Origin: a phage
Sequence record: PZ445530.1
Strand: one strand, 5' to 3'
Length of the DNA: 64,000 nt
Shown here: piece after piece, positions 477 to 13,368 of the stretch
Layout of the letters: each line of letters starts with the position of its first letter
How positions within the stretch are numbered: position 1 is the first letter of the stretch
The notes under the pieces: model-generated
Database searches by the model: none
The model's input: the letters and a program-made list of their open reading frames with translations, nothing else
Told to the model about the DNA's origin: nothing
Program-made: the position numbers and the translations under genes

Positions 477-2548
477 TGGCAACAGCTGTTTTTAAACCTT
501 ACCGTGATTACTCTACAATGGCTGCACAGTTTCATTACCGCACAGTTCAGGATACTGCCGTTCCTGGTAGAGATTATGATCATGTTGAGGGCGATGTAAC
601 TATCCCAGTTGGGGCAACCAGTATTGAGATCCCAGTGGAAATTGTTGACAAATTACCCAACAGGTTGCCAAGAAGCTTCTTTATGGAGTTTTCATCAAAA
701 TCTCAAGGGGTGATGATTGGAACACAAAGGGCGAAATGTACAATAGTTTCAGATGAGAATCTTGACAGGATATCTTGGGATACTGTTGAGGAGAGAATGT
801 TTCACCCCAGGTATTGGGTTACAACTACTCAGCAGACTGAAAGTACCTGTATTGTTGCAGATAACAACTGTTGTATTAACCGTTTAGTGTCAAGAACATA
901 TGGGGGTATGGCTGGGTGCATTTGGGAAACAGTTGACAAGTATGACCATTTCGGTATTGGGTTTGATGATCACTATGAGATGAGAAACACCAAGCTTTGG
1001 TTCAGAATGTCAATAACCAACGCCAGCAACTTCTCCACTCCTGAAAAGATGATTATGACTGTAGACCTTGTTGATGGCACAATCATCTATGTTCCTTTAG
1101 CTCAATATGCTGTCAGCATCTCAGAGGATAAAAATGTTGCAGAAATTCATATTGATTTTGAGGACTGCGTCGGGATGGACCAGAACAACAACATGATGGG
1201 TGTTGATCCTCGGCAGGTGAGAAGGATTTTAATACCACTTATGCCTAAAGACTGGGTAAGTAATAGCACAGATCCAAGAACGGAAAATGTAGAGTGTGAG
1301 TTGCGCCTAGATCTGCTTCAGCCAGACACAGGCTGGAAAATGATGCAGCTTAATAATATCCAGGTGAGAGAGCACGACGTTGGGATCTGCACCGCATATG
1401 ACGATATGTGGAACGTGTCCCCTTTAAGGGTGTTGAACAATATCAAGCGTCTGGGCTATACCGGAACCATAAACCATTATGTTGGTATGAGTCATTATTA
1501 TGACTACACATGGTCAGGAACCCAATGGTCTATAAACAGAACAGGAGCGCTAAACGCTGCAGCTTATAAATGGCATGATGATTTTATGTACAATGCTAAA
1601 CGACATAACTTCGACGTTATGCAATCTGTAAGTTTTGAGCTTTTCAGCGATGCCTGCCCGTTGGAATGGACCCAAAGAGACTGGAACGATAACTACGCTA
1701 AAACAGGGTATACACCTTGTAGCTACCTCCTGTCTCCAACCATTGAAGAGGGTATGAATTTCCTTACTGCAGTATTTAAGAATTTTGCATCAGCCGCTAT
1801 GAGAAACAACCTGCCAGTGATTATGCAGGTTGGTGAACCGTGGTGGTGGTACAATACCGATACTCGTAGACCTTGTATTTATGATTACCCTACAAAACAG
1901 GCGTTTTATGATGAGACAGGCGAGTATGCATTAGATATTGGGACTATTGACGATCCTAAAACTGGCGGTGTTTACGATAAGTATGTAGCATTTTGTCGTG
2001 GTAAGCTTGGCGCTCGTATTGCGGCTATTTCAAAGGCAATAAAGGCACACGCTGCATCAGCTCAGATGACAGCTCTGCTGTTTTTCCCAACCATTATGGA
2101 AACCGAGCTTACGCAAAAGCTTAACCTTGCTGACCAATATAAAAAGGAAGCAGGTGCTCTTGATTTCTTCTGCACCGAGTGCTACGATTGGGTGATGCAG
2201 GGAGGTATTGAAAAGGCAAAAGAGTCTGTAAACATACCTATCGTTAAGTTAGGTTGGCAACCGTCTGAAATACAATACCTTGCAGGGTTCGTTCCTAGTA
2301 AAGAGCTTGCTCCGGTATATGGTTACGACCCAACCAGGAATTACCAAGAATTTTTATGGAGATGTATTTGCGGAAACATGGCAACTATAGAGTATAGATA
2401 TCCTGAGGTAAAACAGTATGTGTGGGCATACCCGCAAGTAATGTCTGACAGCATCACTGTTACCGCTAGAGATTCTACCGTGCTTCATATGGGGCAGGTT
2501 GCTCTGAAAGGGTATGTAGAAGATGTTGTCCCGCCAGACTTCTCATAA
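476..2548 (+). CDS. hypothetical virion/tail-associated protein (690 aa)
   Basis: Long ORF with AGGAG-type RBS before ATG; heads the tail-fibre block; no catalytic motif recognised. Confidence 0.6.
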   Translation: MATAVFKPYRDYSTMAAQFHYRTVQDTAVPGRDYDHVEGDVTIPVGATSIEIPVEIVDKLPNRLPRSFFMEFSSKSQGVMIGTQRAKCTIVSDENLDRISWDTVEERMFHPRYWVTTTQQTESTCIVADNNCCINRLVSRTYGGMAGCIWETVDKYDHFGIGFDDHYEMRNTKLWFRMSITNASNFSTPEKMIMTVDLVDGTIIYVPLAQYAVSISEDKNVAEIHIDFEDCVGMDQNNNMMGVDPRQVRRILIPLMPKDWVSNSTDPRTENVECELRLDLLQPDTGWKMMQLNNIQVREHDVGICTAYDDMWNVSPLRVLNNIKRLGYTGTINHYVGMSHYYDYTWSGTQWSINRTGALNAAAYKWHDDFMYNAKRHNFDVMQSVSFELFSDACPLEWTQRDWNDNYAKTGYTPCSYLLSPTIEEGMNFLTAVFKNFASAAMRNNLPVIMQVGEPWWWYNTDTRRPCIYDYPTKQAFYDETGEYALDIGTIDDPKTGGVYDKYVAFCRGKLGARIAAISKAIKAHAASAQMTALLFFPTIMETELTQKLNLADQYKKEAGALDFFCTECYDWVMQGGIEKAKESVNIPIVKLGWQPSEIQYLAGFVPSKELAPVYGYDPTRNYQEFLWRCICGNMATIEYRYPEVKQYVWAYPQVMSDSITVTARDSTVLHMGQVALKGYVEDVVPPDFS

Positions 2549-2560
2549 TCAGGAGATAAA

Positions 2561-3601
2561 ATGTCAAAACCTAGTTTTCCATTAGAGATTTGGGCAGAGG
2601 AGGATCAGGTTCTGCCTAACACCCACAGACAGAACAGGCTACGCCCGATTGATGATTTGTGGAGAAAAGGTTGGGATCTTGGTCAAAAGCCCTCATGTGA
2701 AGAACTTAACTATATTTTCAATATGCTCGGGACTTGGGCAAAATACATCGCTGACGAGCAGATCCCCGCTCAAGAAGGCCGTTATCTGGTACGTGATAAT
2801 AACTTGAGTGATCTTTTGAACATTCCTGTTGCCCGTAGAAACCTTGGGATTATTACTAAGGAAGAGGCAGACGCCAGGTATGTAAAAGTTACAGGTGATA
2901 CAATGACAGGCCCATTGGGTTTGCAACGTATCAACTTTAAAGCTGCCGAGTCAGATAAGGCTTGGATAGAGACAACTATTGGCCCAGATAAGACAACTCT
3001 CGACTTTGGGTTAAGTGATAATACCGGGTCGTTTGATGATGGTGGTACATCTACAGTGGATGCGTTCCGTTGGAGATTCCAGCCAACTCAGCCGGATATT
3101 AATCCAGAGTTCACTTTGATGTACCTTAACGCGATCACGGCTAACCGTGCGCTGTTGAAAGTGGTAGGCAATGTTGAAGTTGTCGATAACATGAGGTGCA
3201 ATAACCTTACTATCAGCAATACAGCGACATTCACCAACTGTAATGTGGCTAGTCAGTTGACGGCTGGGTCAGTGTATGTTAATGGTGGTGCAAGTTGTGA
3301 CAGTATGGTTGTAAGAAGCCAGCACTGTGTTGTCGGTAACAGAAATGTGGTTCGCTCTGTGAACGGAGTGACGGCTAACGGTAACGGTGATGTAACGATC
3401 ACTATCCCGCAGACAGGTGTGCAAGACATCAGAATCGGTGCAAGACTTGTGGACGGAGTTTCTGAATCTCCAATCCGCAACGGCTACGTTGTCACAGGCT
3501 GGCATTTCGGTGACAAAAAAGAGATGCGTGGTTCAACCTACTGGGCAGGACCTTTACAAAAACTTGTAAATGGTCAATGGATCACTGTTAATTATGCATA
3601 G
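2561..3601 (+). CDS. tail fibre protein, paralog A (346 aa)
   Basis: RBS caggag before ATG; shares PLEIWA..., DGFRWRFQP, LNAITANRA, RNVVRxVNG and C-terminal QKLVNGQWIT(V/I)xYA with ORF 4616-5659; followed by a Tfa-like chaperone gene. Confidence 0.65.
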   Translation: MSKPSFPLEIWAEEDQVLPNTHRQNRLRPIDDLWRKGWDLGQKPSCEELNYIFNMLGTWAKYIADEQIPAQEGRYLVRDNNLSDLLNIPVARRNLGIITKEEADARYVKVTGDTMTGPLGLQRINFKAAESDKAWIETTIGPDKTTLDFGLSDNTGSFDDGGTSTVDAFRWRFQPTQPDINPEFTLMYLNAITANRALLKVVGNVEVVDNMRCNNLTISNTATFTNCNVASQLTAGSVYVNGGASCDSMVVRSQHCVVGNRNVVRSVNGVTANGNGDVTITIPQTGVQDIRIGARLVDGVSESPIRNGYVVTGWHFGDKKEMRGSTYWAGPLQKLVNGQWITVNYA

Positions 3602-3615
3602 ATCGGAGGACTAGC

Positions 3616-4200
3616 ATGAAAATACTTCAAGAGTTTAAACTTTACCAACCGGGATCTGGCGAATACCGCACCAACAAGGAAACCAAGGAGCTGACCCCTC
3701 AAGAGGTTGAGGATTACACAGCATGCACTGGGTATTTTTTACGTAATGATGATGGCGATTGGTATGTGCAGTCACGAACATTACGACAAGAAAATCCGGG
3801 GTGTATCTTCCTACTTGTTGACGAGAAGGGAATTCTTAAGACATCTACAGAAGAACCTGATGCCTTATGGCCTGCTCCAGGTCTTCGTGTGGTTATCGCC
3901 AAAAAAGAAGAGGTACCAGAAAACATTATGCTTCACCACGACGCTTTGCGTTTAGTTGGTGATGAATTTGTCACAGACAATGAATTCTTTGTTCAACAGG
4001 CAGAGGGTGTCATAGAGACAGAACTTGCTTGGGCTACTGCTAGAATTGGTGCCTATCAAGACATGATTGACCTTGAATATGATCTTACTGATGACCAGAA
4101 ACGTAACATCAGAGATTTGAAAATGTACAGGGTAAAACTTCTTGAAATAGATACATCTAAAGCCCCTGACATTTTCTTCCCGGAGCGACCTACCCTCTAA
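3616..4200 (+). CDS. tail fibre assembly protein (lambda Tfa-like)
   Basis: C-terminus YRVKLLEIDTSKAPDIFFPERP closely matches lambda Tfa C-terminus [22 protein letters not shown] (recalled from memory); positioned directly after a fibre gene. Confidence 0.65.
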   Translation: MKILQEFKLYQPGSGEYRTNKETKELTPQEVEDYTACTGYFLRNDDGDWYVQSRTLRQENPGCIFLLVDEKGILKTSTEEPDALWPAPGLRVVIAKKEEVPENIMLHHDALRLVGDEFVTDNEFFVQQAEGVIETELAWATARIGAYQDMIDLEYDLTDDQKRNIRDLKMYRVKLLEIDTSKAPDIFFPERPTL

Positions 4201-4211
4201 GAGGAGGTGTT

Positions 4212-4526
4212 GTGGAGTTGGATTTGGCGGCATTGTACGGTATCTGCATGGGTACCGTTGTCCCGATCTGTGTATGGGCTTTCAACCAGTGGCACACCAA
4301 ATGGAAAGGCATTTCCAAGAGGTTGGATGAACTGGAGAAAGACCTCATCTTAGTGAAAAACAGTATGGTTACAAAAGATAAACTTGATTCCGTTATCGAG
4401 ACCCGGTTAAGTAAGCTAGAGGCCGATATTAACGACCTTAAGCAGGATGTCAGGACAGATGTCTCCGGTATCCGAGCTGATGTACAAAAGATTTTGCACA
4501 TGCTCGTAGAGCATAGTAAAAGGTAA
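4212..4526 (+). CDS. small protein with N-terminal hydrophobic segment and coiled-coil-like C-terminus
   Basis: GTG start 5 nt after GAGGAGG; hydrophobic N-terminus (LAALYGICMGTVVPICVWAF). Confidence 0.45.
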   Translation: MELDLAALYGICMGTVVPICVWAFNQWHTKWKGISKRLDELEKDLILVKNSMVTKDKLDSVIETRLSKLEADINDLKQDVRTDVSGIRADVQKILHMLVEHSKR

Positions 4527-4534
4527 ACAAAGGT

Positions 4535-4568
4535 CAGAACGGAAAGGACTCCGTTCTTGCATTTTGTT
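4535..4568 (+). terminator. putative intrinsic terminator
   Basis: 7-bp stem AGAACGG/CCGTTCT with 9-nt loop followed by T-rich tract. Confidence 0.4.
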
Positions 4569-4615
4569 CCCTAAAGTGTTAAAATAGTCCTAAGGAATTT
4601 TCTCAGGAGAACGTG

Positions 4616-5659
4616 ATGACTAAACCAGTTATCCCTCTTGATATTTGGGCCAATCAGGATGTTGTGCTTGAAAATACGGGAGAGTTGAATAAGTCTCAAC
4701 CAAAAAAAGAAGAGAGATTGAAAGGTTGGGATATGACACAAAGAGTGGCATGTGAAGTTGTTAACTTTGAACTTCACATGCTTTCTGCGTGGTTGAAGCA
4801 TTTAACAGAAGATGTTGTCCCAGGATGGGATAATAGATTCTTAAGGGTCACTAATAATCTAGCAGACGTTCCAGACAAAGCTGCTGCACGTCAAGTTCTC
4901 AATGTATACTCACCTGAAGAAATGGACGATCTATATGTTGACAAGTCTGGAGACATAATGACTCAGACTCAAACTTTAGGTCTTCAAAGAATCGAGTTTG
5001 CATCTGCGTCAACAGACAGTGCGGCAATATATACCACCATAACTCCAGACAAGACGACGATGGATTTCTGGATTATGGACAACATCGGTGGTGCTGACGG
5101 CACAGACCTTGATGATCCTTCTCACCAAATAGATGGGTTCCGTTGGAGATTTCAACCTTCTGGTGGGCAGCCTGTGTTTTCAGCTATGAAGCTCAATGCT
5201 ATAACTGCCAACCGTGCAAGACTGGCTATCCAAGGAAATCTTGAATGCAACGATGCAAAAAGTTCCTCTGCAAATGCCAATGCGGTCACGATACCAAGAG
5301 CCACTGTTAATGGACAACAATCCTGCGGAAGCGCTCAAATAGGTGGAAGAGTTGATTGTAACGATGAAACCGTCAGGGGCCAATATGCAACAGTTGGTGG
5401 AAGAAACGTGGTCCGCAGGGTAAATGGTAACGGCGCAGACAGTAGCGGTAACCTTACTATCCCTATGCCTAGCAGAGGGGTTGATGATGTAAGGATAGCA
5501 AACCGTTTTAAAACCACCTACAGAGAGTCAAGAGTCTACCCTGGACATGTGATGTGCTCTGGTAACTACGCTTATAAACACCCTTATCAAGGTGATTACT
5601 GGACAGGTGCTATCCAAAAACTTGTAAATGGTCAATGGATCACTATATCTTATGCTTAA
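4616..5659 (+). CDS. tail fibre protein, paralog B (347 aa)
   Basis: ATG after aggaga RBS; paralogous to 2561-3601 with the same conserved blocks and C-terminal QKLVNGQWITISYA. Confidence 0.65.
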   Translation: MTKPVIPLDIWANQDVVLENTGELNKSQPKKEERLKGWDMTQRVACEVVNFELHMLSAWLKHLTEDVVPGWDNRFLRVTNNLADVPDKAAARQVLNVYSPEEMDDLYVDKSGDIMTQTQTLGLQRIEFASASTDSAAIYTTITPDKTTMDFWIMDNIGGADGTDLDDPSHQIDGFRWRFQPSGGQPVFSAMKLNAITANRARLAIQGNLECNDAKSSSANANAVTIPRATVNGQQSCGSAQIGGRVDCNDETVRGQYATVGGRNVVRRVNGNGADSSGNLTIPMPSRGVDDVRIANRFKTTYRESRVYPGHVMCSGNYAYKHPYQGDYWTGAIQKLVNGQWITISYA

Positions 5660-5670
5660 AAAGAGGGTAA

Positions 5671-5937
5671 ATGAAACTAACTCAGTTTTTATGGGGACTG
5701 GTTGCGGCATCTGATGACCCTACGAAAGTGTCCCAAACTAAGCTATGGTCGAACATAGGCATGGCGGTGATGACTGGGGTGTTTATTCATATGGGGTATA
5801 ATGATACGCTTCCTGAATGGTATACGTGGATATACGCGACTTCAGTAGCTTGCCCCCAGCTTATTAGCAAATTCATCTCGCTCCGGTGGGGTTGCCAGCA
5901 CCCTGACCACGTTAAAAACGAAGAGCAAAAAGCTTAA
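5671..5937 (+). CDS. small membrane protein (holin-like topology, function unproven)
   Basis: RBS aaagaggg; two hydrophobic segments (FLWGLVAA..., IGMAVMTGVFIHMGY). Confidence 0.45.
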   Translation: MKLTQFLWGLVAASDDPTKVSQTKLWSNIGMAVMTGVFIHMGYNDTLPEWYTWIYATSVACPQLISKFISLRWGCQHPDHVKNEEQKA

Positions 5938-5946
5938 GGAGAAATC

Positions 5947-7692
5947 ATGGCGCAAGACATGACAAGCTTTGAGCAGGCGGTAGATCAAGTAATTGTTGAT
6001 TCTGAACGTTTGCACCTGATTGTCAACGGTAACGCTGTGGATGAAGTTGTCGTAGAGGATGGGACCACCATCCCTACGGTACGAAAAGCCATGCTTGACA
6101 CCCTTTATTTTAAAACGCCACCGATCCCTTGGGCGTATGGTGCATCCACAACAGTTTTTAACCAGCTGTACGAGTTTAAAGGGGACACAGGCCCTCAGTG
6201 GTGGTACGCTCCCGCAGCATCAAAATCTAACCCGGTTAGAATGCCAGCAGATCCTTCACAATCTCCAAACTGGAGATTATATACCGATTCTGCAGTAATG
6301 GCAAAATACTACGCAAAACTTAACAGTCCGAGGTTCGAAGGTGACCCGCGAGTACCTACGCCTCCAATGGACGACAAATCCGAGTCTATAGCAAACACAG
6401 AGTTTGTTGTTGACTATGTGGATAGCATATTTGAAGCCATGGAGGGAATGAAAGTTACTGTAGGGTCTTTGGTGGTAAAAGGTCTTACAGAACTTGCTAA
6501 CACTATAGTTGGTGGCACACTCACCTTACATGGGCCTGTTAATGGAGCAGATTCTACTGCACGCTTCAGGAACCTAATCCTCACGGCAAATACTTCTACA
6601 CTTACTTTTGCGTGGAGTGATCCTAAGCATGCAGACTGGAGAAGCACAGAGCTGCAACCTCATAAAGTGTCCACCCACAGGGTTATAGCTGACACTATAA
6701 CTTCTGGGAAACCAGTGGCTAATAATAACGATGTGCATTTTGATGGTATAGGTAATAACTTTTTTGACTACGTGTACATTCGTGGTAATGCCATGAAGGC
6801 AGCAACCGAACCGACATTGCAGGTAGATGGAACCACCAGGGTTAAGAACCTTGAGGTGACAGGCACTGTTACAGGGATAACATACTCTGTCGATGGCACC
6901 ATGATCTACCCTAGCTATATTGAAAGCACGGGTGATGCATTGATAAATGGCGATTTGGAGGTTGGCGGGTCTGTAGTTATTCGAGGTACAGCCTCTATCC
7001 AAAATATAGCTCTGAATACTCTAAGAGTCAATGAGCGTGCAACTTTTGAAGGAGAAGGGCTTACAGCCAATAAAGGTACAATTACCGAGCTGACCACCAC
7101 CACTTTAACTGCAACAACTGCAAACTCTGAAAACTGCAACATTACCAGAAACTTGCAGGTAAATGGAGATGTTAGTTTAAACGCCGCAGGGACTGGCACC
7201 ACCTACCTTCACAATCTTGAAATATCCGGCACAGTGACCGGATGGCTGCCAGACTTCTCTAATGTCAACTTTGTCTGTAATGGCATTAACTCCAGTGGTA
7301 AGATAACCACCTCTCAAGAAATTGAGGCTGGTAAAACCATCACTGCCCCTACTTTCCACGCAGGAAAGGTAGATTTTGACTTAGAGGAGGTTGACGCGTC
7401 CAGTGGGACATGGACACCTAACGGGCAGGCCAGTATGTATGTTGTCCACGCTAAAGGGGATTTTACAATAGGTCAGTGGCCTGGGACATCAGCGGAAGAT
7501 AAACCTTATCCATTCACTGCAGTTATCTATGTCATTCAGGATGCTGTAGGTCACAACGTGACTTTGCACGATAAGTATGCTATCCTGTCGGCAACACCTG
7601 TTATTAACAACAGGGCTAACAGTGTTACCTTGCTGCAATTAACGTATTGTGGTGTTGGTGATATTGTAGACGTAGTAATTGCACAACGTTAA
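5947..7692 (+). CDS. tail fibre / receptor-binding protein (581 aa)
   Basis: RBS taaggag; Thr/Gly/Asn-rich repetitive beta-rich sequence typical of fibres. Confidence 0.55.
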   Translation: MAQDMTSFEQAVDQVIVDSERLHLIVNGNAVDEVVVEDGTTIPTVRKAMLDTLYFKTPPIPWAYGASTTVFNQLYEFKGDTGPQWWYAPAASKSNPVRMPADPSQSPNWRLYTDSAVMAKYYAKLNSPRFEGDPRVPTPPMDDKSESIANTEFVVDYVDSIFEAMEGMKVTVGSLVVKGLTELANTIVGGTLTLHGPVNGADSTARFRNLILTANTSTLTFAWSDPKHADWRSTELQPHKVSTHRVIADTITSGKPVANNNDVHFDGIGNNFFDYVYIRGNAMKAATEPTLQVDGTTRVKNLEVTGTVTGITYSVDGTMIYPSYIESTGDALINGDLEVGGSVVIRGTASIQNIALNTLRVNERATFEGEGLTANKGTITELTTTTLTATTANSENCNITRNLQVNGDVSLNAAGTGTTYLHNLEISGTVTGWLPDFSNVNFVCNGINSSGKITTSQEIEAGKTITAPTFHAGKVDFDLEEVDASSGTWTPNGQASMYVVHAKGDFTIGQWPGTSAEDKPYPFTAVIYVIQDAVGHNVTLHDKYAILSATPVINNRANSVTLLQLTYCGVGDIVDVVIAQR

Positions 7693-7740: not shown

Positions 7741-10700
7741 ATGCTTCCAATCCCTTTGCTAAAACTTGGTCGTCATTTCCTCGATAAGAGGGGTGGAATT
7801 AAGGAACTTGCTGTTCTGTCATACCCAATAGACAACAGTGATGGTACAAGCAACACAGTATCCTATGTAAATAGCTTGGCTATACTTTTTGATGATGGTC
7901 AGCTTAATATTACGGGCTATAACAAGTTCGGGGAGTGTCGCACTGGGGATCGTAACCCTATAAACTACCCAAGCGAAACAGCCTGGAATGTTGATCATGT
8001 GTGGAGAGCAGACCGTGCGTTTGTGATCCGGACTTTTGATAACCAGTTTTTCTACATCGGCTGCACTGCAGGTCTTATCGGATCCACTGCGGCAGGCGGT
8101 AATGATGTTTGCGTAAACGAGTGGACACCTCTTCCGGAACAGATTGTTAAAGGGTTGCACCTTGACACCCACCCAGAGCGCCTTATTGAGGTGATGGGTG
8201 GTATTAACAACACTGTCTGGGTTATTGCAGAGGCAGAAGGCACTGGCATACTTAAACTATATGGATCTGGTAACAACACCTACGGATCTTTGCATGTAGA
8301 TAAAAATCAGCATGCAACCCCTGTAAAGATTGGTGAGACATCGGAAAATCCGGAAACAGGTCCTTGGAAAAACCCAAGCATCAACTGCGAGGTGCATGAC
8401 AACTCTGTTATTTTCGGTGGTCCTAGAGGCTTCTGGATTGCTGGATACGACTTTCTAAGAAATAACAGTAGAAACGACCTTGTTTGGCCTCCTGTGCAGA
8501 TTACTCGTAACGATTTGAGGGGCATTCCTGCAGATGAAGAGTGGAAAGGGTTTATGTGCGGTCCTAACGGGGCAATAATTGCCACACAGAGGATGCACAA
8601 ACCAAATGACCAGCAGCTTGTTAACGTATTCTACGGGCAAGACGTTTGGGGAGATGACACGTGGCGTTCCTTAAATATCACCTACACCCATGAGGTGATA
8701 ATGGCTCGTGGATACGGCACAAGTGGCATTTTCTTCAATAATGGCACTAAACAGTATCGTGGATTCTCTCGCAACTTGTGTAATGATATTGGTGCACAAT
8801 CTGCAAACAATAGCCCTAGGGCTAATTTTATCCACTATCAGGCTCTTGCTACAGCTAAATATGTTGAGCAACGCCTGCCAGTTAGCTGGACAGAGAGTGT
8901 TTATTTCCAAGGCATCCACAGGGAAGGTTTCTTAGGAACCTTTACTGTTGTTAATGGCAAACTTTGGTGGTCAGGCATCCCAAGGGGGAGTTTTGCAGGA
9001 TCTAACAACCTCTTTGGCGGCAGACTTAACAGCCAAGGGTTCACAGAGATTCCGGAGAATTGGTATAAAAATGTCCCGGTAGATAGCTGGGGTATCGAAG
9101 ACATCTTTGATGTCAATGGTGTGAGCAATGTTAGCAACATTTACATCGGAGATACTGTCAAGATGAAATTGAAACCTCAGCCGGAGGGTGCTACGTTCAT
9201 TATTGACAAGATTGAGTTGGTAAATGCTGCAGGCACTGTTGTTACAGATGCAAACTATCAGTTCTCCACTAACTGGAACCATGGTGGTGCTAACGAAGTT
9301 GTGGTCACCCAGTATAACCGTAACATCAACAGACGTGGTTTGTATTCTATCAAGATCACCTACCATGACAAGCATGGCACTGGAAGAACCTATACGACAA
9401 GAACTTTGAACTGGAACACTATAGTTCCTGCGTATCCGTCCAACGGCAAGTGGCATACCGTTGGTAGAAACAAGCAGTTCCATGTTAACGATACTGTATA
9501 CTTTGGGCTGAATGGGACCCAGCCTGCAGTAGAAGGGGATACATCGTATATGGTCAGACTCCACAGAATGGATGCTGGATCAGTCACTTATGATGTGACC
9601 CAAGAGATCTACGATCAAAGACGTGCCACGTATGACAATATTGTAAAAACACAAGCCTTGTGGGAGTTCAATCCTAATGGCAAGGGTGGTAAAATGTTGC
9701 AGGTTAATGAGCAGAACGGAACGTCGTTGACTGTTCACGAACACCCAGACCCTTGGCCTGATCCTGGAAAACCTCACCCGAGAGCTCGTACACTGAAAAT
9801 TGTCAGCCATGATGCAGGATATTTCGGAATACGCTGGGAAGCTACAGTAAGATATGTCGACGGGACAACAAACAACATAGGGATTACACTTGGCGGCACT
9901 AGTGAAGATAACTCGCTGAAAATTGCCTACACGCCCAGAGGTATCTCTATTGATAGTATGGATGTTGTTCGCAATGGCTACGGCGATGTGAATGTCAAAG
10001 TTACTCTTGGCGAACATCTTGGTGGGGAAAGGATCATCATGTATGCCTTTGATCATGATCCACGCACCAATGGAACTTATGCAAATCAGGCATGGAGTTA
10101 CCTGATAAATGCACCTGAGCCGAATACTAAAGAGTTCTACTATGGTATGAAGCGAGATGTGTGCAAGAAAACAGGAACACATGACTGGATTGCTATCTGC
10201 GTTAAAGATGAGCGCACAGCTTGGGATGAGCCTGTTAACAGATGGTTCATAGGTATTCCTACCAGAAGTGATAAGTATGTCGCAGAATATATTGTATGCA
10301 TGGGCGGTACCAACCTAAACATGTGTTGGAACGAAGATGTAAACAAATACTCTGATTATGACTATATGAGGGATTACTCTTGTAATTTGTGGTTTAACCA
10401 AACTACAGGTTACCCTCCAAGACAGGCGAGAGTAAACCCTGCAATCTTCACAGACACGCAGGTTTTCTTGACAAAACAGGCCAACGAGGTTCAGACCTTC
10501 AAGAATAAATACGATCCTAACAAGTGGTTCTACAACTGTTACGGCGCATTTTTCTGGGGACCTGGTGAGTTACCTGGTGGGGGATCTTGCTTGAATGAGG
10601 CAACTTACGCAAGTGACTACATCATGGGGCAGGTCAAGAAGTATAAGATAATCCCCGGTCCTGAGACTTTGGGCAATGCCGTTGACCCTTATATCATCAT

Positions 10701-13368
10701 GACTGCACTGAGATCAAACATGGATGGGACATCCATGTCCATGCAAATTCCGGTAACAAACGGATACAAACGTGTTGTGATGATCATTAAGTGCGACCTG
10801 ATAGGTAAACAAGTTCTTGCAGAAAACGGGACATCCACACATCCTTTTGAGATCGCTCTGCACTATCAGTTTGCTGACTCACCTTTTGCAGGGGATAAGA
10901 GAATATCTGATACAGACGCACAGCGTTGTAAGAAAGTATTGTTGGGTGCAGGTTGGTGGTGGTATGAGTTTGATTTAACAGACAAATTCACCGACACGTC
11001 TAAAGTTGTAACAGGACTTCGTCTAGACCTTGGCGAGAACATGCACAAAGCTGTTTGTGATGGCACCTATGGTGACCCTACAATATACCTAAAATATGTT
11101 TCTTTTGAGCATCCGGAAGATGTTGTCTACGGTCCAAAACTGAGATTGTTTGGCAGCTGGATTGCAAAAGATAGGGTAGGCATGGGTAAGAAGGTAAGAG
11201 GGCTCTTGGTTGATGCAGGAACAGAAGACATGCTGGTTAATGCAGTGTGGCCTGAATTACCTGGGACTCAGTGGGACAACTCAGCCAAATCTATAAACTG
11301 GTTTAACATTCATAGGGCCATGTGGACCACTAACTGCTACTTGTGGAGAGAGCTTAACGATCAGGCCTTTGGATTCAGCGATGGTAGAAGGATGGCGATC
11401 ATTTGCTGGACAACACTGCAAAGATGTTATGACCATGACTATGAGATTGGGGGCAGGGCATGGAAAAATATCAGGGATAGAATCATAACCAATTTTGCAG
11501 ACGACAACGGTGGTGGAGCACATAACTTTGGCACAAGCCGACTCATCCATCTGAACGGATCCTCAGCCTACAAGAAAGAAGGTTACTCTGGGTCTATGAT
11601 CGAGTGGGGTCTGGTGAAAGATGCTCGCGTATTGATGGGCCAGCAACTTGCTGCCGCAATAGGTCCCAGCGCAGTGCAGTCGGTTAAACCAGCGTGGTTC
11701 GATATTCCATTGTGGTCACCCGGAACACCGGGAACTGCTGCAATCAACCCTACCACTGGGGATCTAGAAATCTCCGGGGAGGACTTGAAGCAGGTCGGTG
11801 GTTGGGACAAAACAGGGTACCAGGTTCAGTGGTGGAGAGCTGATGGATCTTTAGCTGCTGATGAGTTTGTTAAGGACAATTTCTACACTATGTCCTCTGC
11901 AAAAGCACAGCAATTATTTGGTCAGGCAACTCCGTCAACGATCACCATGTCTATGTGCTGTAAAGACAACAGGACTGGAGCTTTGGGGCCAAGGGTTGCT
12001 AAAGTTTTCTCAGGTATTAAATGGAATCTACCTGTCCAAAGTATTTCATGGAAGCAAATAGGTGATAACAAGCTGCTGGTTACCCCTGCCTGTCAGTTCA
12101 ACGCAACTCTTAACGTTGATCCTGCTGTTGCGGCAAACTCAGCTAAAGCTTCTGACTTCTCTGTGTCTAACACTGCTATGGCAGATGTGAGGAAGATTGA
12201 CACACTGAACGCCAGAATTACCTGTAAAAACACTTATGGCACATTCCAAATCATCAACAACTTCACAGATGCTGATTCTAAGGTAGTAAGGACAGCAAGC
12301 CAGACTCTGAGTTTAGGGACTCTGGCCTATGCGGCCCTGATCACCGAACAGTCGGCAACACTCCAAGGAGGCGGTGTAGGCAAGTCCATTGCAACACCTG
12401 TGTGGAAGCCAAATGAGTGGGTTGTGTTTGATTTGACTGTGGACTTCTCCAGCGATAATAGCTGGACATGGGTAAGGAATTGTTTGTCACAATTGATGGG
12501 CGGTCCAAGCTCCGTTAGTGATAGTCACGACTCTACTGACCCGAGTGTGTTCCAGGTAGGTAAAACTCACCCAGAGACTGGAGAAACGTTGCCTGACAGG
12601 AAGTATGCGTTGGTTTGCATCTCTTACGGGAAGGCAGATGTCACATTCTCAGGGACACACACTTATAACGGAACTTACAACTTCTCAAGGAAGTATAGTC
12701 TCAAAGCAGGGAACATTATAGACGAGGTCGGTGTGCTTTATAATCCGGGCAACGGCATAGGGATTGTGGGCGGTAAACTGCAGATGCAGGAACCTTCTAT
12801 CACCCCTTCCAACGTATCCGGGATTAGAAAGACTTGGGAAAGTAGTGATACCAACATTGCAACAGTGGATGCCACCACAGGGCTGGTAACATTTAAAGCT
12901 ACTGGGAATGTCACCATAAAGTTTGTAGTTAGAGATGATGCAGGCCGCAAAACGTCTTCAACATCGTTTACTGTCAGACAGATGGCACCTCAGTGGTTTA
13001 TTTGGGAAGGAAATCCTCTTGACGGGGCTTACCCTAGACCTGCAGGAACGTCCAATATGAGGGTCTTTACCGGTCCGGTCATGAACAATCCGACCACAAC
13101 CACCAACCCTACATTTTTTGGTGCTTACATACCTGAAATTATTGGCCTACCAAGGAACCAGATACAACTGCTTTTCGGAGCAGGTGTTGATGGTCTAGCC
13201 ACTTTTGGGTACAGTGACAACATTGATGCAGCCAGAAGCTCGGGTTGGATTGGATTTAAGTTTCAGTGGAACCCTGGTGGTAGAACATTAGGTGTTGCAA
13301 GCATAGGTGTTATGCTACCTGGTAACCAGCAATACCATCTCGAAGCTTATACAAACTTCCCTAGTTAA
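7741..13368 (+). CDS. large virion protein (1875 aa), probable tail/host-interaction protein with Ig-like domain near C-terminus
   Basis: Single uninterrupted 5.6 kb ORF with RBS; C-terminal segment (TWESSDTNIATVDATTGLVTFKATGNVTIKFVVRDDAGRKTSSTSFTV) resembles bacterial Ig-like (Big_2) domains. Confidence 0.65.
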   Translation: MLPIPLLKLGRHFLDKRGGIKELAVLSYPIDNSDGTSNTVSYVNSLAILFDDGQLNITGYNKFGECRTGDRNPINYPSETAWNVDHVWRADRAFVIRTFDNQFFYIGCTAGLIGSTAAGGNDVCVNEWTPLPEQIVKGLHLDTHPERLIEVMGGINNTVWVIAEAEGTGILKLYGSGNNTYGSLHVDKNQHATPVKIGETSENPETGPWKNPSINCEVHDNSVIFGGPRGFWIAGYDFLRNNSRNDLVWPPVQITRNDLRGIPADEEWKGFMCGPNGAIIATQRMHKPNDQQLVNVFYGQDVWGDDTWRSLNITYTHEVIMARGYGTSGIFFNNGTKQYRGFSRNLCNDIGAQSANNSPRANFIHYQALATAKYVEQRLPVSWTESVYFQGIHREGFLGTFTVVNGKLWWSGIPRGSFAGSNNLFGGRLNSQGFTEIPENWYKNVPVDSWGIEDIFDVNGVSNVSNIYIGDTVKMKLKPQPEGATFIIDKIELVNAAGTVVTDANYQFSTNWNHGGANEVVVTQYNRNINRRGLYSIKITYHDKHGTGRTYTTRTLNWNTIVPAYPSNGKWHTVGRNKQFHVNDTVYFGLNGTQPAVEGDTSYMVRLHRMDAGSVTYDVTQEIYDQRRATYDNIVKTQALWEFNPNGKGGKMLQVNEQNGTSLTVHEHPDPWPDPGKPHPRARTLKIVSHDAGYFGIRWEATVRYVDGTTNNIGITLGGTSEDNSLKIAYTPRGISIDSMDVVRNGYGDVNVKVTLGEHLGGERIIMYAFDHDPRTNGTYANQAWSYLINAPEPNTKEFYYGMKRDVCKKTGTHDWIAICVKDERTAWDEPVNRWFIGIPTRSDKYVAEYIVCMGGTNLNMCWNEDVNKYSDYDYMRDYSCNLWFNQTTGYPPRQARVNPAIFTDTQVFLTKQANEVQTFKNKYDPNKWFYNCYGAFFWGPGELPGGGSCLNEATYASDYIMGQVKKYKIIPGPETLGNAVDPYIIMTALRSNMDGTSMSMQIPVTNGYKRVVMIIKCDLIGKQVLAENGTSTHPFEIALHYQFADSPFAGDKRISDTDAQRCKKVLLGAGWWWYEFDLTDKFTDTSKVVTGLRLDLGENMHKAVCDGTYGDPTIYLKYVSFEHPEDVVYGPKLRLFGSWIAKDRVGMGKKVRGLLVDAGTEDMLVNAVWPELPGTQWDNSAKSINWFNIHRAMWTTNCYLWRELNDQAFGFSDGRRMAIICWTTLQRCYDHDYEIGGRAWKNIRDRIITNFADDNGGGAHNFGTSRLIHLNGSSAYKKEGYSGSMIEWGLVKDARVLMGQQLAAAIGPSAVQSVKPAWFDIPLWSPGTPGTAAINPTTGDLEISGEDLKQVGGWDKTGYQVQWWRADGSLAADEFVKDNFYTMSSAKAQQLFGQATPSTITMSMCCKDNRTGALGPRVAKVFSGIKWNLPVQSISWKQIGDNKLLVTPACQFNATLNVDPAVAANSAKASDFSVSNTAMADVRKIDTLNARITCKNTYGTFQIINNFTDADSKVVRTASQTLSLGTLAYAALITEQSATLQGGGVGKSIATPVWKPNEWVVFDLTVDFSSDNSWTWVRNCLSQLMGGPSSVSDSHDSTDPSVFQVGKTHPETGETLPDRKYALVCISYGKADVTFSGTHTYNGTYNFSRKYSLKAGNIIDEVGVLYNPGNGIGIVGGKLQMQEPSITPSNVSGIRKTWESSDTNIATVDATTGLVTFKATGNVTIKFVVRDDAGRKTSSTSFTVRQMAPQWFIWEGNPLDGAYPRPAGTSNMRVFTGPVMNNPTTTTNPTFFGAYIPEIIGLPRNQIQLLFGAGVDGLATFGYSDNIDAARSSGWIGFKFQWNPGGRTLGVASIGVMLPGNQQYHLEAYTNFPS

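Follow-up and report, generated by a model that had tools for sequence, protein, structure and literature searches.

Two paralogous short tail fibres and a single Tfa-type chaperone in the short-tail-fibre locus of an rV5-like Escherichia coli phage

Why a phage should encode two paralogous short tail fibres next to a single assembly chaperone, and whether that chaperone serves both of them, is the question raised by a locus in sequence record PZ445530.1, of which a stretch of 64,000 nucleotides (hereafter the window) was analysed. The window belongs to an rV5-like E. coli myophage of the genus Vequintavirus, and the locus is its short-tail-fibre locus. The closest species was Vequintavirus slur16, represented by Escherichia phage JohannBauhin with 99.7% nucleotide identity and an annotation that agrees. 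The genes mapped to rV5 ORFs 33, 32, 31, 30 and 29, and all features described below lie on the plus strand, in the order fibre A (gp33), the chaperone Tfa (gp32), gp31, a hairpin with a late-promoter-like element, and fibre B (gp30). Fibre A was 99.4% identical to rV5 ORF33/gp33 and fibre B 99.1% identical to ORF30/gp30, while the Tfa proteins of Vequintavirus among the matches listed were 97.9–99.5% identical to that of the window, the rV5 value not being one of these. No NCBIfam model was found for any of the five locus proteins, and no tRNA gene was found in the 64,000-nt window. The paralogy of rV5 gp30 and gp33 had already been stated at 42.3% identity (Kropinski et al. 2013, PMC3606486; Maffei et al. 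2021, PMC8594841), and two paralogous short tail fibres with a chaperone, homologous to Mu GpS/GpU, were described in the latter study (PMC8594841, S5D Fig). The locus, its paralogy and its Mu-like chaperone were hence already known, and no new biology is added to them here; the modest additions of the present work are an anchor signature of the B lineage, a separate late-promoter-like element for B, and the sharing of one tip by both fibres of a metagenomic relative, L005.

Fibre A (2561..3601), the 346-aa orthologue of rV5 gp33, matched phrog_4465 with E=2e-171 and begins with a domain for wedge attachment, continues as a shaft and ends in a C-terminal tip of the Mu-GpS type. Searching the PDB sequences with phmmer aligned residues 1–108 with the short tail fibre of phiTE (9cuy_c, E=1.4e-19) and residues 286–343 with the Mu tail fibre S (5yvq, E=2e-6). 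The top Foldseek match of the fibre A model was 5yvq_A (E=2e-6), the model being an AlphaFold2 monomer of low confidence (mean pLDDT 62), as expected for an intertwined trimer. The tip of fibre A is a widespread module that recurs at 57–61% identity in fibres of Phapecoctavirus and in those of ~53-kb phages. A profile of the fibre family searched against the PDB recovered the N-terminus of the phiTE short tail fibre (E=2e-34) as well as Mu S (5yvq, residues 438–503, E=7.9e-13) and Mu S' (8ju3, E=4.5e-6). Each fibre consists of an N-terminal domain of ~80–100 aa, a shaft and a C-terminal tip of ~65 aa. Judged by sequence homology, the N-terminal domain corresponds to the phiTE domain that fixes the short tail fibre to baseplate wedge protein 1, where residues 3–92 were modelled attached to wedge 1 (PMC11972413). 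The tip of the family is homologous to the tip of the Mu tail fibre S, the part bound by the Mu chaperone.

The initial annotation had proposed that the reading frames at 2561–3601 and 4616–5659 encode two paralogous fibres which share their terminal blocks and diverge in the centre. The paralogy was borne out, as the alignment spanned both proteins with 152 of 356 positions identical (43%, BLASTP E=7e-94), far above chance, and both matched phrog_4465 (E<=1e-166). The shared C-terminal motif QKLVNGQWIT(V/I)xYA was likewise found at the end of both fibres. The distribution of similarity turned out otherwise. In a sliding window of 30 aa the pairwise alignment placed the best conserved stretch in the central shaft (A residues ~100–205, 50–67% identity), contrary to the proposed central divergence, and the second best at A residues 250–280 (~55%). 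As for the terminal blocks, the C-terminal one held for the last ~14 residues only, whereas residues 1–40 at the N-terminus were just 37–50% identical. Minima were located at residues 50–90 (27–30%), 205–240 (23–35%) and the tip loops at 280–325 (27–37%). Synonymous sites between A and B were near saturation. Recent gene conversion between the two genes of the window was considered and rejected, with third-codon-position identity at ~0.2–0.5 throughout, rising only slightly at the very 3' end.

Fibre B (4616..5659), the 347-aa short tail fibre orthologous to rV5 gp30, matched phrog_4465 with E=4.8e-166. Its ATG at 4616 lies 5 nt past an AGGAG, which makes the GTG at 4613 an unlikely start. It is built like A, except that its N-terminal anchor is derived and its tip distinct. 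Residues 1–83 matched the phiTE short tail fibre by phmmer (E=1.2e-9), and no phmmer match at E<=1 was obtained between the tip alone and Mu S. The AlphaFold2 monomer model of fibre B, of low confidence (pLDDT 60), gave no significant Foldseek match, and no tip-only match of fibre B in other phages appeared among the 45 of 207 records listed. The tip nevertheless retained G310, Q334 and W341, which are invariant among 32 aligned family members, together with the same last strand QKLVNGQWIT. The predicted membership of fibre B in the Mu-S-type tip group thus draws on its full-length homology to A and on these retained invariant residues.

The gene at 3616..4200 encodes a tail fibre assembly chaperone of the Tfa/Caudo_TAP family (194 aa, rV5 gp32 orthologue) with the C-terminus MYRVKLLEIDTSKAPDIFFPERPTL. 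Its earlier description as a Tfa-like protein was confirmed by the profile search, in which Pfam PF02413 (Caudo_TAP), with a cut-off of 22.1 bits, scored 45.7 bits (E=9.1e-12, residues 121–192 on profile positions 60–130), and by a full-length match to phrog_136 'tail fiber assembly protein' (E=6.7e-36). PF02413 covers only the C-terminal 72 aa. In Tfa proteins the fibre-binding N-domain is variable and the C-domain conserved, and the Tfa of Mu remains on the fibre (PMC9608196). Identities of the N-domain and C-domain were 43 and 53% to L005, 30 and 44% to SSE121, and 35 and 34% to PaulScherrer. A phmmer search of Tfa against the PDB sequences did not recover Mu U and gave spurious matches only. 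Tfa begins 15 nt past the stop of fibre A, an arrangement also found in rV5, PaulScherrer, SSE121, L005 and L009, and tblastn revealed one Tfa place per Vequintavirus genome. That Tfa follows the first fibre only, as had been noted at the outset, was upheld, since fibre B precedes an 88-aa membrane protein and is not followed by a Tfa.

Small ORFs flank the chaperone and fibre B. A conserved protein of 104 aa with a GTG start (4212..4526, rV5 gp31; phrog_5345, E=1e-48) follows the chaperone, and a small ORF holds this position in PaulScherrer, SSE121, L005 and L009 as well. It gave weak, sub-threshold Pfam matches only, at residues ~25–98, which suggested a helical or coiled-coil remainder; Table S3 of the rV5 study lists it as 'membrane protein, 1 TMD' (PMC3606486). 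Directly 3' of fibre B lies a small membrane protein of 88 aa (5671..5937, rV5 gp29), which matched phrog_1322 'membrane protein' (E=3e-32) and had no Pfam match. The idea that gp29 is a degenerate second Tfa was discarded, as it belongs to a membrane protein family that also occurs in SSE121, a phage without fibre B whose homologue is 53% identical.

Two putative transcription signals of its own precede fibre B. By a consensus scan, a terminator-like hairpin followed by TGCATTTTGT was located between gp31 and fibre B (4536..4557), and L005 carries a comparable hairpin element at the same place, followed by TTGCATTTTG. Downstream of it, a late-promoter-like element (4564..4600) with the core TGTTAAAATA at 4577–4586 corresponds, with one mismatch in 37 nt, to the rV5 late promoter P030, which is itself a prediction from the literature (rV5 Table S4, PMC3606486). 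The late-promoter-like motif occurs twice in the window, and L005 carries GTGCTAAAATAA where the window has this element.

By analogy with Mu, Tfa would start trimerisation at the fibre C-terminus, and the single Tfa would most likely serve both A and B, because no other Tfa is detectable in the genome and because A and B alike have retained the invariant core of the tip and end in an identical C-terminal strand. A shared chaperone is thus the favoured inference. It is nonetheless conceivable, if fairly improbable, that Tfa is cognate to A only and that B folds unaided or is helped by host chaperones or a different phage protein. Tfa stands directly 3' of A, as in all single-fibre relatives, and for B a transcription unit of its own is predicted, downstream of the hairpin and the late-promoter-like element. 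Moreover, the A tip is individually recognisable as Mu-S-like and the B tip is not, and the A tip recurs, at 57–61% identity, in phages having their own Tfa homologues, with no such recurrence for B among the 45 of 207 records listed; Mu offers a precedent in S and S' with one chaperone each. An A-only chaperone is at odds, however, with the retention in the B tip of the family-invariant G310, Q334 and W341 and of the last strand QKLVNGQWIT, and with the failure of tblastn to detect a second Tfa in Vequintavirus genomes. Nor do the neighbours of B supply an obvious substitute: gp31 and gp29 occur also in relatives without B, and therefore do not look like B-specific helpers. In L005 the two fibres share their tip, so that one chaperone would naturally suit both there.

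Regarding the origin of the pair, the second fibre copy was restricted to Vequintavirus, the 117 second places corresponding to 117 Vequintavirus records, with one copy in the relatives listed; the single-fibre relatives carry only the fibre, Tfa and the small ORF. Both A and B were near-invariant across the ~117 Vequintavirus genomes (95–100% identity). The dN/dS ratio within the genus was 0.03 for A and 0.04–0.07 for B, with dS up to 0.56, and this strong purifying selection on each copy indicates that both are functional. Between the window and the lineage L009, the tip was 92% conserved in A and 94% in B, the whole proteins being 87% and 78% identical, respectively. In part, these data show fibre B to be an ancient additional copy confined to Vequintavirus. 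A neighbour-joining tree grouped A with B only weakly (bootstrap 30), which is compatible with duplication within the Vequintavirus lineage as well as with uptake of a related fibre.

The N-terminal anchors offered another view of why two copies are kept. All four B-lineage sequences departed from the single-copy consensus (>=90%) at positions 19, 28, 30, 34, 41 and 51, with changes such as PIDDLW to PKKEER and similar, while the A lineage kept all six. The N-termini clustered by class (A–A 0.78–0.89, B–B 0.49–0.77, A–B 0.34–0.45) and the tips did not. On this basis, the paralogues might be defined by two baseplate anchors rather than two tips, the Mu-S-type tips, and with them the fit to the single Tfa, being exchangeable between the copies, a proposal we regard as tentative. 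If it is true, Vequintavirus virions would bear two sets of short fibres, each docked independently, and the shared tip of L005 would illustrate the exchange of tips. The corresponding explanation for the maintenance of the paralogues, that they are kept mainly for architecture with B re-anchored at another docking site on a wedge or on another fibre, is possible but doubtful. The B-lineage substitutions, absent from the A lineage, would correspond to the part of the phiTE fibre that makes up the joint with the wedge (PMC11972413), and the N-termini group by class while the L005 tips are 81% identical. In addition, B shares its predicted transcription unit with gp28, a homologue of the second fibre protein in the phiTE baseplate model (9cuy chain g, E=1e-76), and the long tail fibre of phiTE was reported to contact the short tail fibre (PMC11972413). 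Re-anchoring is weakened by the single fibre of phi92-like phages, which also lacks PIDDLW and yet docks on the wedge, by the chance that the N-terminus of B is simply faster-evolving, and by the sharing of tips in one lineage only, L005; no Vequintavirus baseplate structure was found in the literature searched.

The same anchor substitutions bear on a further and distinctly unlikely alternative, in which A and B would be rivals for one set of six wedge sites, or would assemble into heterotrimers, and the resulting mosaic virions would serve as bet-hedging. Both N-termini are homologous to the wedge-binding domain of phiTE, phi92 shows just six fibre III trimers (PMC13450770), and the A and B shafts are 50–67% identical. 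Competition for common sites is opposed by the conservation of the B-lineage substitutions, which suggests a distinct, selected interface, and heterotrimers would be hard to reconcile with 43% overall identity and indels in the shaft.

As to the virion, the main text of the rV5 study counts gp30, gp32 and gp33 among the detected proteins (PMC3606486); six tryptic peptides of these three proteins were searched for in the deposited rV5 mass spectrometry table of 19 proteins, and none of them, nor any entry of matching length, was present. Structural evidence for attachment of such fibres to the wedge comes from phiTE and phi92. Analogy with Mu, together with genetic data for LL12 and the BASEL phages, suggests trimeric fibres that would point downwards and use the outer core of the LPS as terminal receptor. 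Receptor genetics showed a dependence on waaC/waaG/waaF (PMC7229145, PMC8594841), and all tested members of Vequintavirus require a common LPS core, waaC/waaG (PMC8594841, PMC7229145); what varies in this group as a determinant of host range are the large lateral fibres (PMC8594841). The tip loops and the anchor domain are where A and B diverge most, and the two would probably recognise LPS cores of somewhat different structure or attach to the baseplate in different ways. Two receptor specificities of A and B may be proposed, but in the divergent relative L005 the A and B tips are nearly alike, with 56 of the 63 last aligned residues identical in the full-length alignment and 81% identity when the tips are aligned alone. 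Since these paralogues share a tip type, two specificities are not a constant feature of the fibre pair. The suggestion in the initial annotation of two alternative receptor-binding fibres that possibly broaden the host range was consequently weakened: the fibre pair itself stands, while the near-invariance of the paralogues, the single LPS core, the variability of the lateral fibres and the similar tips of L005 all speak against the functional part.

Taken as a whole, the reading of the locus in terms of its architecture and origin, with fibres directed at the LPS core and one Tfa most likely for both, is probable. The rV5-like phages are common broad-host-range candidates against E. coli in therapy and biocontrol, and their short fibres would set the terminal step of LPS-core reception, so that the virion presence, the position and the chaperone use of both paralogues are relevant to fibre engineering and to resistance through changes of the LPS core.

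Among known systems, rV5 (Kropinski 2013) and the BASEL Vequintavirus (Maffei 2021) carry the same genes in identical order and spacing, with nothing substantially different. The orthologous locus of phi92-like phages, Phapecoctavirus and Seunavirus has the order fibre, chaperone and small ORF but one fibre gene, the single fibre being 34% (PaulScherrer) and 51% (SSE121) identical to A; in phi92 the fibre III, gp147, was fitted as a Mu-like trimer under the wedge protein gp145 (PMC13450770). The N-terminal ~80–108 residues of the short tail fibre of phiTE (Certrevirus, Vequintavirinae; PDB 9cuy/9mjn) are homologous to those of A and B, and its C-terminus carries a similar motif, IQKKVNGVWVTI. 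Unlike A and B, however, the phiTE fibre, 554 aa in length, contains a long coiled coil as well as Ig-like domains, and it is a single copy in a flagellotropic phage. The rV5 gp30 and gp33 were likened to the T4 short tail fibre gp12 by HHpred (PMC3606486); neither phmmer with A and B nor the family profile matched the gp12 chains (PDB 1PDI and relatives) at E<=0.1, and because no gp12 match was obtained at the sensitivity used, the name short tail fibre expresses a functional analogy to T4 rather than family membership. In Mu S and S' (5yvq, 8ju3) the C-terminal ~65 residues are homologous, and a gene for a Tfa-family chaperone lies just downstream, as here, although the N-terminal anchor of A and B is of the phiTE/Vequintavirinae type and not of the Mu type. 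The (+) form of Mu targets glucose of the LPS core (PMC8594841). Mu has two alternative fibres, each with its own chaperone, whereas in the window two complete fibre genes coexist with a single one. Mu switches its fibres by inverting the G segment, so that only one is expressed at any time, and S and S' have the separate chaperones U and U'.

Fibre A (2561-3601, 346 aa; rV5 gp33), the Tfa-like chaperone (3616-4200, 194 aa; rV5 gp32) and fibre B (4616-5659, 347 aa; rV5 gp30) are encoded by three plus-strand ORFs with the boundaries proposed in the initial annotation, and ATG 4616 rather than GTG 4613 was assigned as the fibre B start because AGGAG precedes it at 5-nt spacing. BLASTP aligned A and B over their whole length with 43% identity (E=7e-94), and each belongs to phrog_4465 'tail fiber protein' along its entire length, which bears out the suggested paralogy; the motif QKLVNGQWIT(V/I)xYA was likewise present at both C-termini. 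The accompanying view that the terminal blocks are shared while the centre diverges stood only for the last ~14 residues, which make up the whole conserved C-terminal block. In a sliding 30-residue window the central shaft (residues ~100-205) was the best conserved part, at 50-67%, whereas the N-terminus reached only a moderate 37-50% and the minima lay at 50-90, 205-240 and 280-325. The observation was thus real, its pattern partly mis-described and its interpretation partly supported. Third-codon-position identity between the two genes was ~0.2-0.5 everywhere, and the duplication is therefore old; recent gene conversion between A and B in the window genome was excluded by the same values.

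A family profile built from 32 members was searched against solved structures. With its first ~80 residues it matched the phiTE short tail fibre in 9cuy (E=2e-34); Pectobacterium phage phiTE is in the same subfamily, Vequintavirinae. The NLxDv..aaRxNLg-type shaft repeats matched a Pakpunavirus short tail fibre, and the last ~65 residues matched the Mu tail fibres S (5yvq, E=7.9e-13) and S' (8ju3). Searched singly, A matched both the phiTE short tail fibre (E=1.4e-19) and Mu S (E=2e-6), while B matched the phiTE fibre (E=1.2e-9) and no Mu S match was found for it. AlphaFold2 monomer models were poor (pLDDT 62 for A and 60 for B); 5yvq_A was the sole significant Foldseek match of the low-confidence A model (E=2e-6), and no match was retrieved with the B model. 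Cryo-EM of phiTE showed that residues 3-92 of the short tail fibre form a globular joint on wedge protein 1 (PMC11972413), and in phi92 the orthologous gp147 was placed beneath the wedge protein gp145 as 'fibre III', a downward-pointing fibre, and called Mu-like (PMC13450770).

The layout of A, Tfa, a 104-aa ORF and B also occurs in two further lineages, L009 (87%, 78% and 78% identical to the window in A, B and Tfa, respectively) and the more divergent L005 (73%, 47% and 47%), whose fibres lie at 116-1156 and 2190-3254 of the ENA metagenome contig ERZ15185469 NODE_327. Positions 19, 28, 30, 34, 41 and 51 each have a residue with at least 90% conservation among single-copy fibres; the A lineage retains every one of these residues, and all four B-lineage sequences deviate from them. 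PIDDLW is replaced by PKKEER, PEKDLR or PAKEQQ in the B lineage, and the deviating positions belong to the stretch by which the phiTE fibre is bound to wedge 1. When the window was compared with L009, conservation was highest in the C-terminal tips (A 92%, B 94%). The L005 fibres are 52% identical overall, yet their tips, both A-type, agree at 56 of the final 63 aligned positions when the whole proteins are compared (81% when the tips are aligned alone). As third-position identity in these tips is only 0.47-0.57, any tip exchange was not recent, and the likeness points to an older exchange or a strong common constraint. The anchor, not the tip, is thus the constant difference between A and B, which suggests that B may dock at a different site from A and that tips may move between the copies. 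A fibre-B variant of the L009 type (78% identity; L009-L011) is filed in NCBI as 'hypothetical protein [Escherichia coli]', on contigs up to 136,793 bp, large enough for a whole phage; it represents a lineage separate from the window and probably comes from a Vequintavirus-like genome that was assembled together with an E. coli isolate.

A tblastn search with A found 487 places in 370 phage records, and the surplus of 117 places equals the number of Vequintavirus records; all relatives among the matches listed (Seunavirus, Klebsiella, Cronobacter and Raoultella phages, phi92-like phages and Phapecoctavirus) had a single place. Fibre, chaperone and small ORF is the gene order of these single-fibre relatives. 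A neighbour-joining tree joined the A and B lineages with a bootstrap of only 30, B having the longer branch; that the duplication took place in the stem of Vequintavirus is plausible. Within the genus, dN/dS was 0.03 for A and 0.04-0.07 for B, with dS up to 0.56; both fibres are under strong purifying selection and are therefore functional genes.

The sole long gap in the fibre block, 89 nt at 4527-4615, precedes fibre B and contains a terminator-like hairpin (4536-4557) and a predicted counterpart (4564-4600, one mismatch) of P030, a late promoter predicted in rV5 by Kropinski et al. (PMC3606486). Fibre B therefore appears to open a separate late transcription unit, and both elements recur at the same place in L005 (2105-2189). 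Since the next predicted rV5 terminator, t028, lies after gene 28, B would probably be transcribed together with gp29 and gp28. The neighbouring genes described next all lie on the plus strand. Upstream, rV5 gp34 (476-2548, 690 aa), listed for rV5 as a structural protein with MS evidence (PMC3606486), carries Calx-beta, NCTSP_N and NCTSP TIM-barrel domains, the last from the family to which gp65 of N4, a non-contractile tail sheath protein, belongs (Pfam E=4e-80). A 2026 preprint connected a domain of N4 gp65 with the fibre that binds the NGR polysaccharide in phi92-like phages and Vequintavirus, exemplified by phi92 gp142; the LL12 counterpart of gp142 is gp33, to which rV5 gp34 would correspond. 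The 104-aa gp31 (4212-4526), after the chaperone, has one TM segment in the rV5 annotation and weak Pfam matches only, suggesting a coiled-coil remainder; similarly sized ORFs occupy its position in phi92-like and Seunavirus relatives (25-32% identity). The 88-aa gp29 (5671-5937; phrog_1322), in which two hydrophobic segments are visible on inspection, has a homologue of 53% identity in SSE121, a phage without fibre B. The N-terminal 325 residues of gp28 (5947-7692, 581 aa) are homologous to 9cuy chain g ('Putative tail fiber protein', E=1e-76), which is the other fibre protein in that phiTE baseplate model, and its orthologues carry Phage_phiTE_241_N and Phage_phiTE_241_C domains. For phiTE a long tail fibre, which may be chain g, is reported to be anchored via the sheath initiator and wedge 2A and to touch the short fibre (PMC11972413). 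Next follows the very large fibre protein gp27 (7741-13368, 1875 aa), whose relatives have Big_2/intimin-like domains and which is among the lateral fibre genes with allelic variation across Vequintavirus genomes (Maffei 2021, PMC8594841).

The C-terminal 72 residues of ORF 3616-4200 exceeded the Pfam Caudo_TAP threshold (45.7 bits vs 22.1, E=9e-12), and phrog_136 'tail fiber assembly protein' matched its full length, confirming the Tfa-like assignment. Tfa proteins bind the fibre tip through a variable N-domain and drive trimerisation through a conserved C-domain; 5yvq is a complex of Mu fibre and Tfa, which remains on the mature fibre (PMC9608196). We infer that one chaperone serves both fibres, given that Tfa is single-copy in Vequintavirus genomes (tblastn E<=1e-3) and that both tips keep G308/310, Q333/334 and W340/341, which do not vary across the 32 aligned sequences, and finish with the same last strand. 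Sharing is opposed by the precedent of Mu, in which each alternative fibre has its own chaperone, and by the tips themselves: that of A is a widespread module (57-61% identity to Phapecoctavirus and ~53-kb phage tips), none of the matches listed for B (45 of 207 records) was of this tip-only kind, and B alone is not recognisably Mu-like. Incorporation of both fibres into virions is less certain than the literature suggests; none of six tryptic peptides of gp30, gp32 and gp33, and no entry of their lengths, was found in the deposited rV5 MS table of 19 proteins.

Along its entire length, region 2400-5800 matched Escherichia phage JohannBauhin (Bas53, Vequintavirus slur16) at 99.7% identity, and 117 phage records, nearly all rV5-like E. 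coli myophages, matched it at 90% identity or more. Some 16-21 MG0656xx GenBank records are named 'Campylobacter phage' and give Campylobacter jejuni as host, yet across the locus they share 98-99% identity with rV5-like phages of E. coli; host mislabelling or carry-over contamination seems likely. The JohannBauhin order, lateral tail fibre, short tail fiber protein, tail fiber chaperone, hypothetical protein, short tail fiber protein, hypothetical protein and lateral tail fibre, corresponds to ORFs 34, 33, 32, 31, 30, 29 and 28 of the type phage rV5, in whose table gp32 is a Caudo_TAP tail fibre assembly protein and gp31 a 1-TMD membrane protein (Kropinski et al., PMC3606486). The LL12 requirement was mapped to the LPS outer core (Piya et al. 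2020, PMC7229145), and waaC and waaG were required by all members tested by Maffei et al. (PMC8594841), who saw no considerable allelic variation in the paralogues. The paralogy of the two fibres (42.3% identity) had been stated by Kropinski et al. as well as by Maffei et al. In light of these publications, the two-fibre, one-chaperone locus is therefore a correct rediscovery of a known one, already described by Maffei et al. as homologous to the phi92-like locus and to Mu GpS/GpU.
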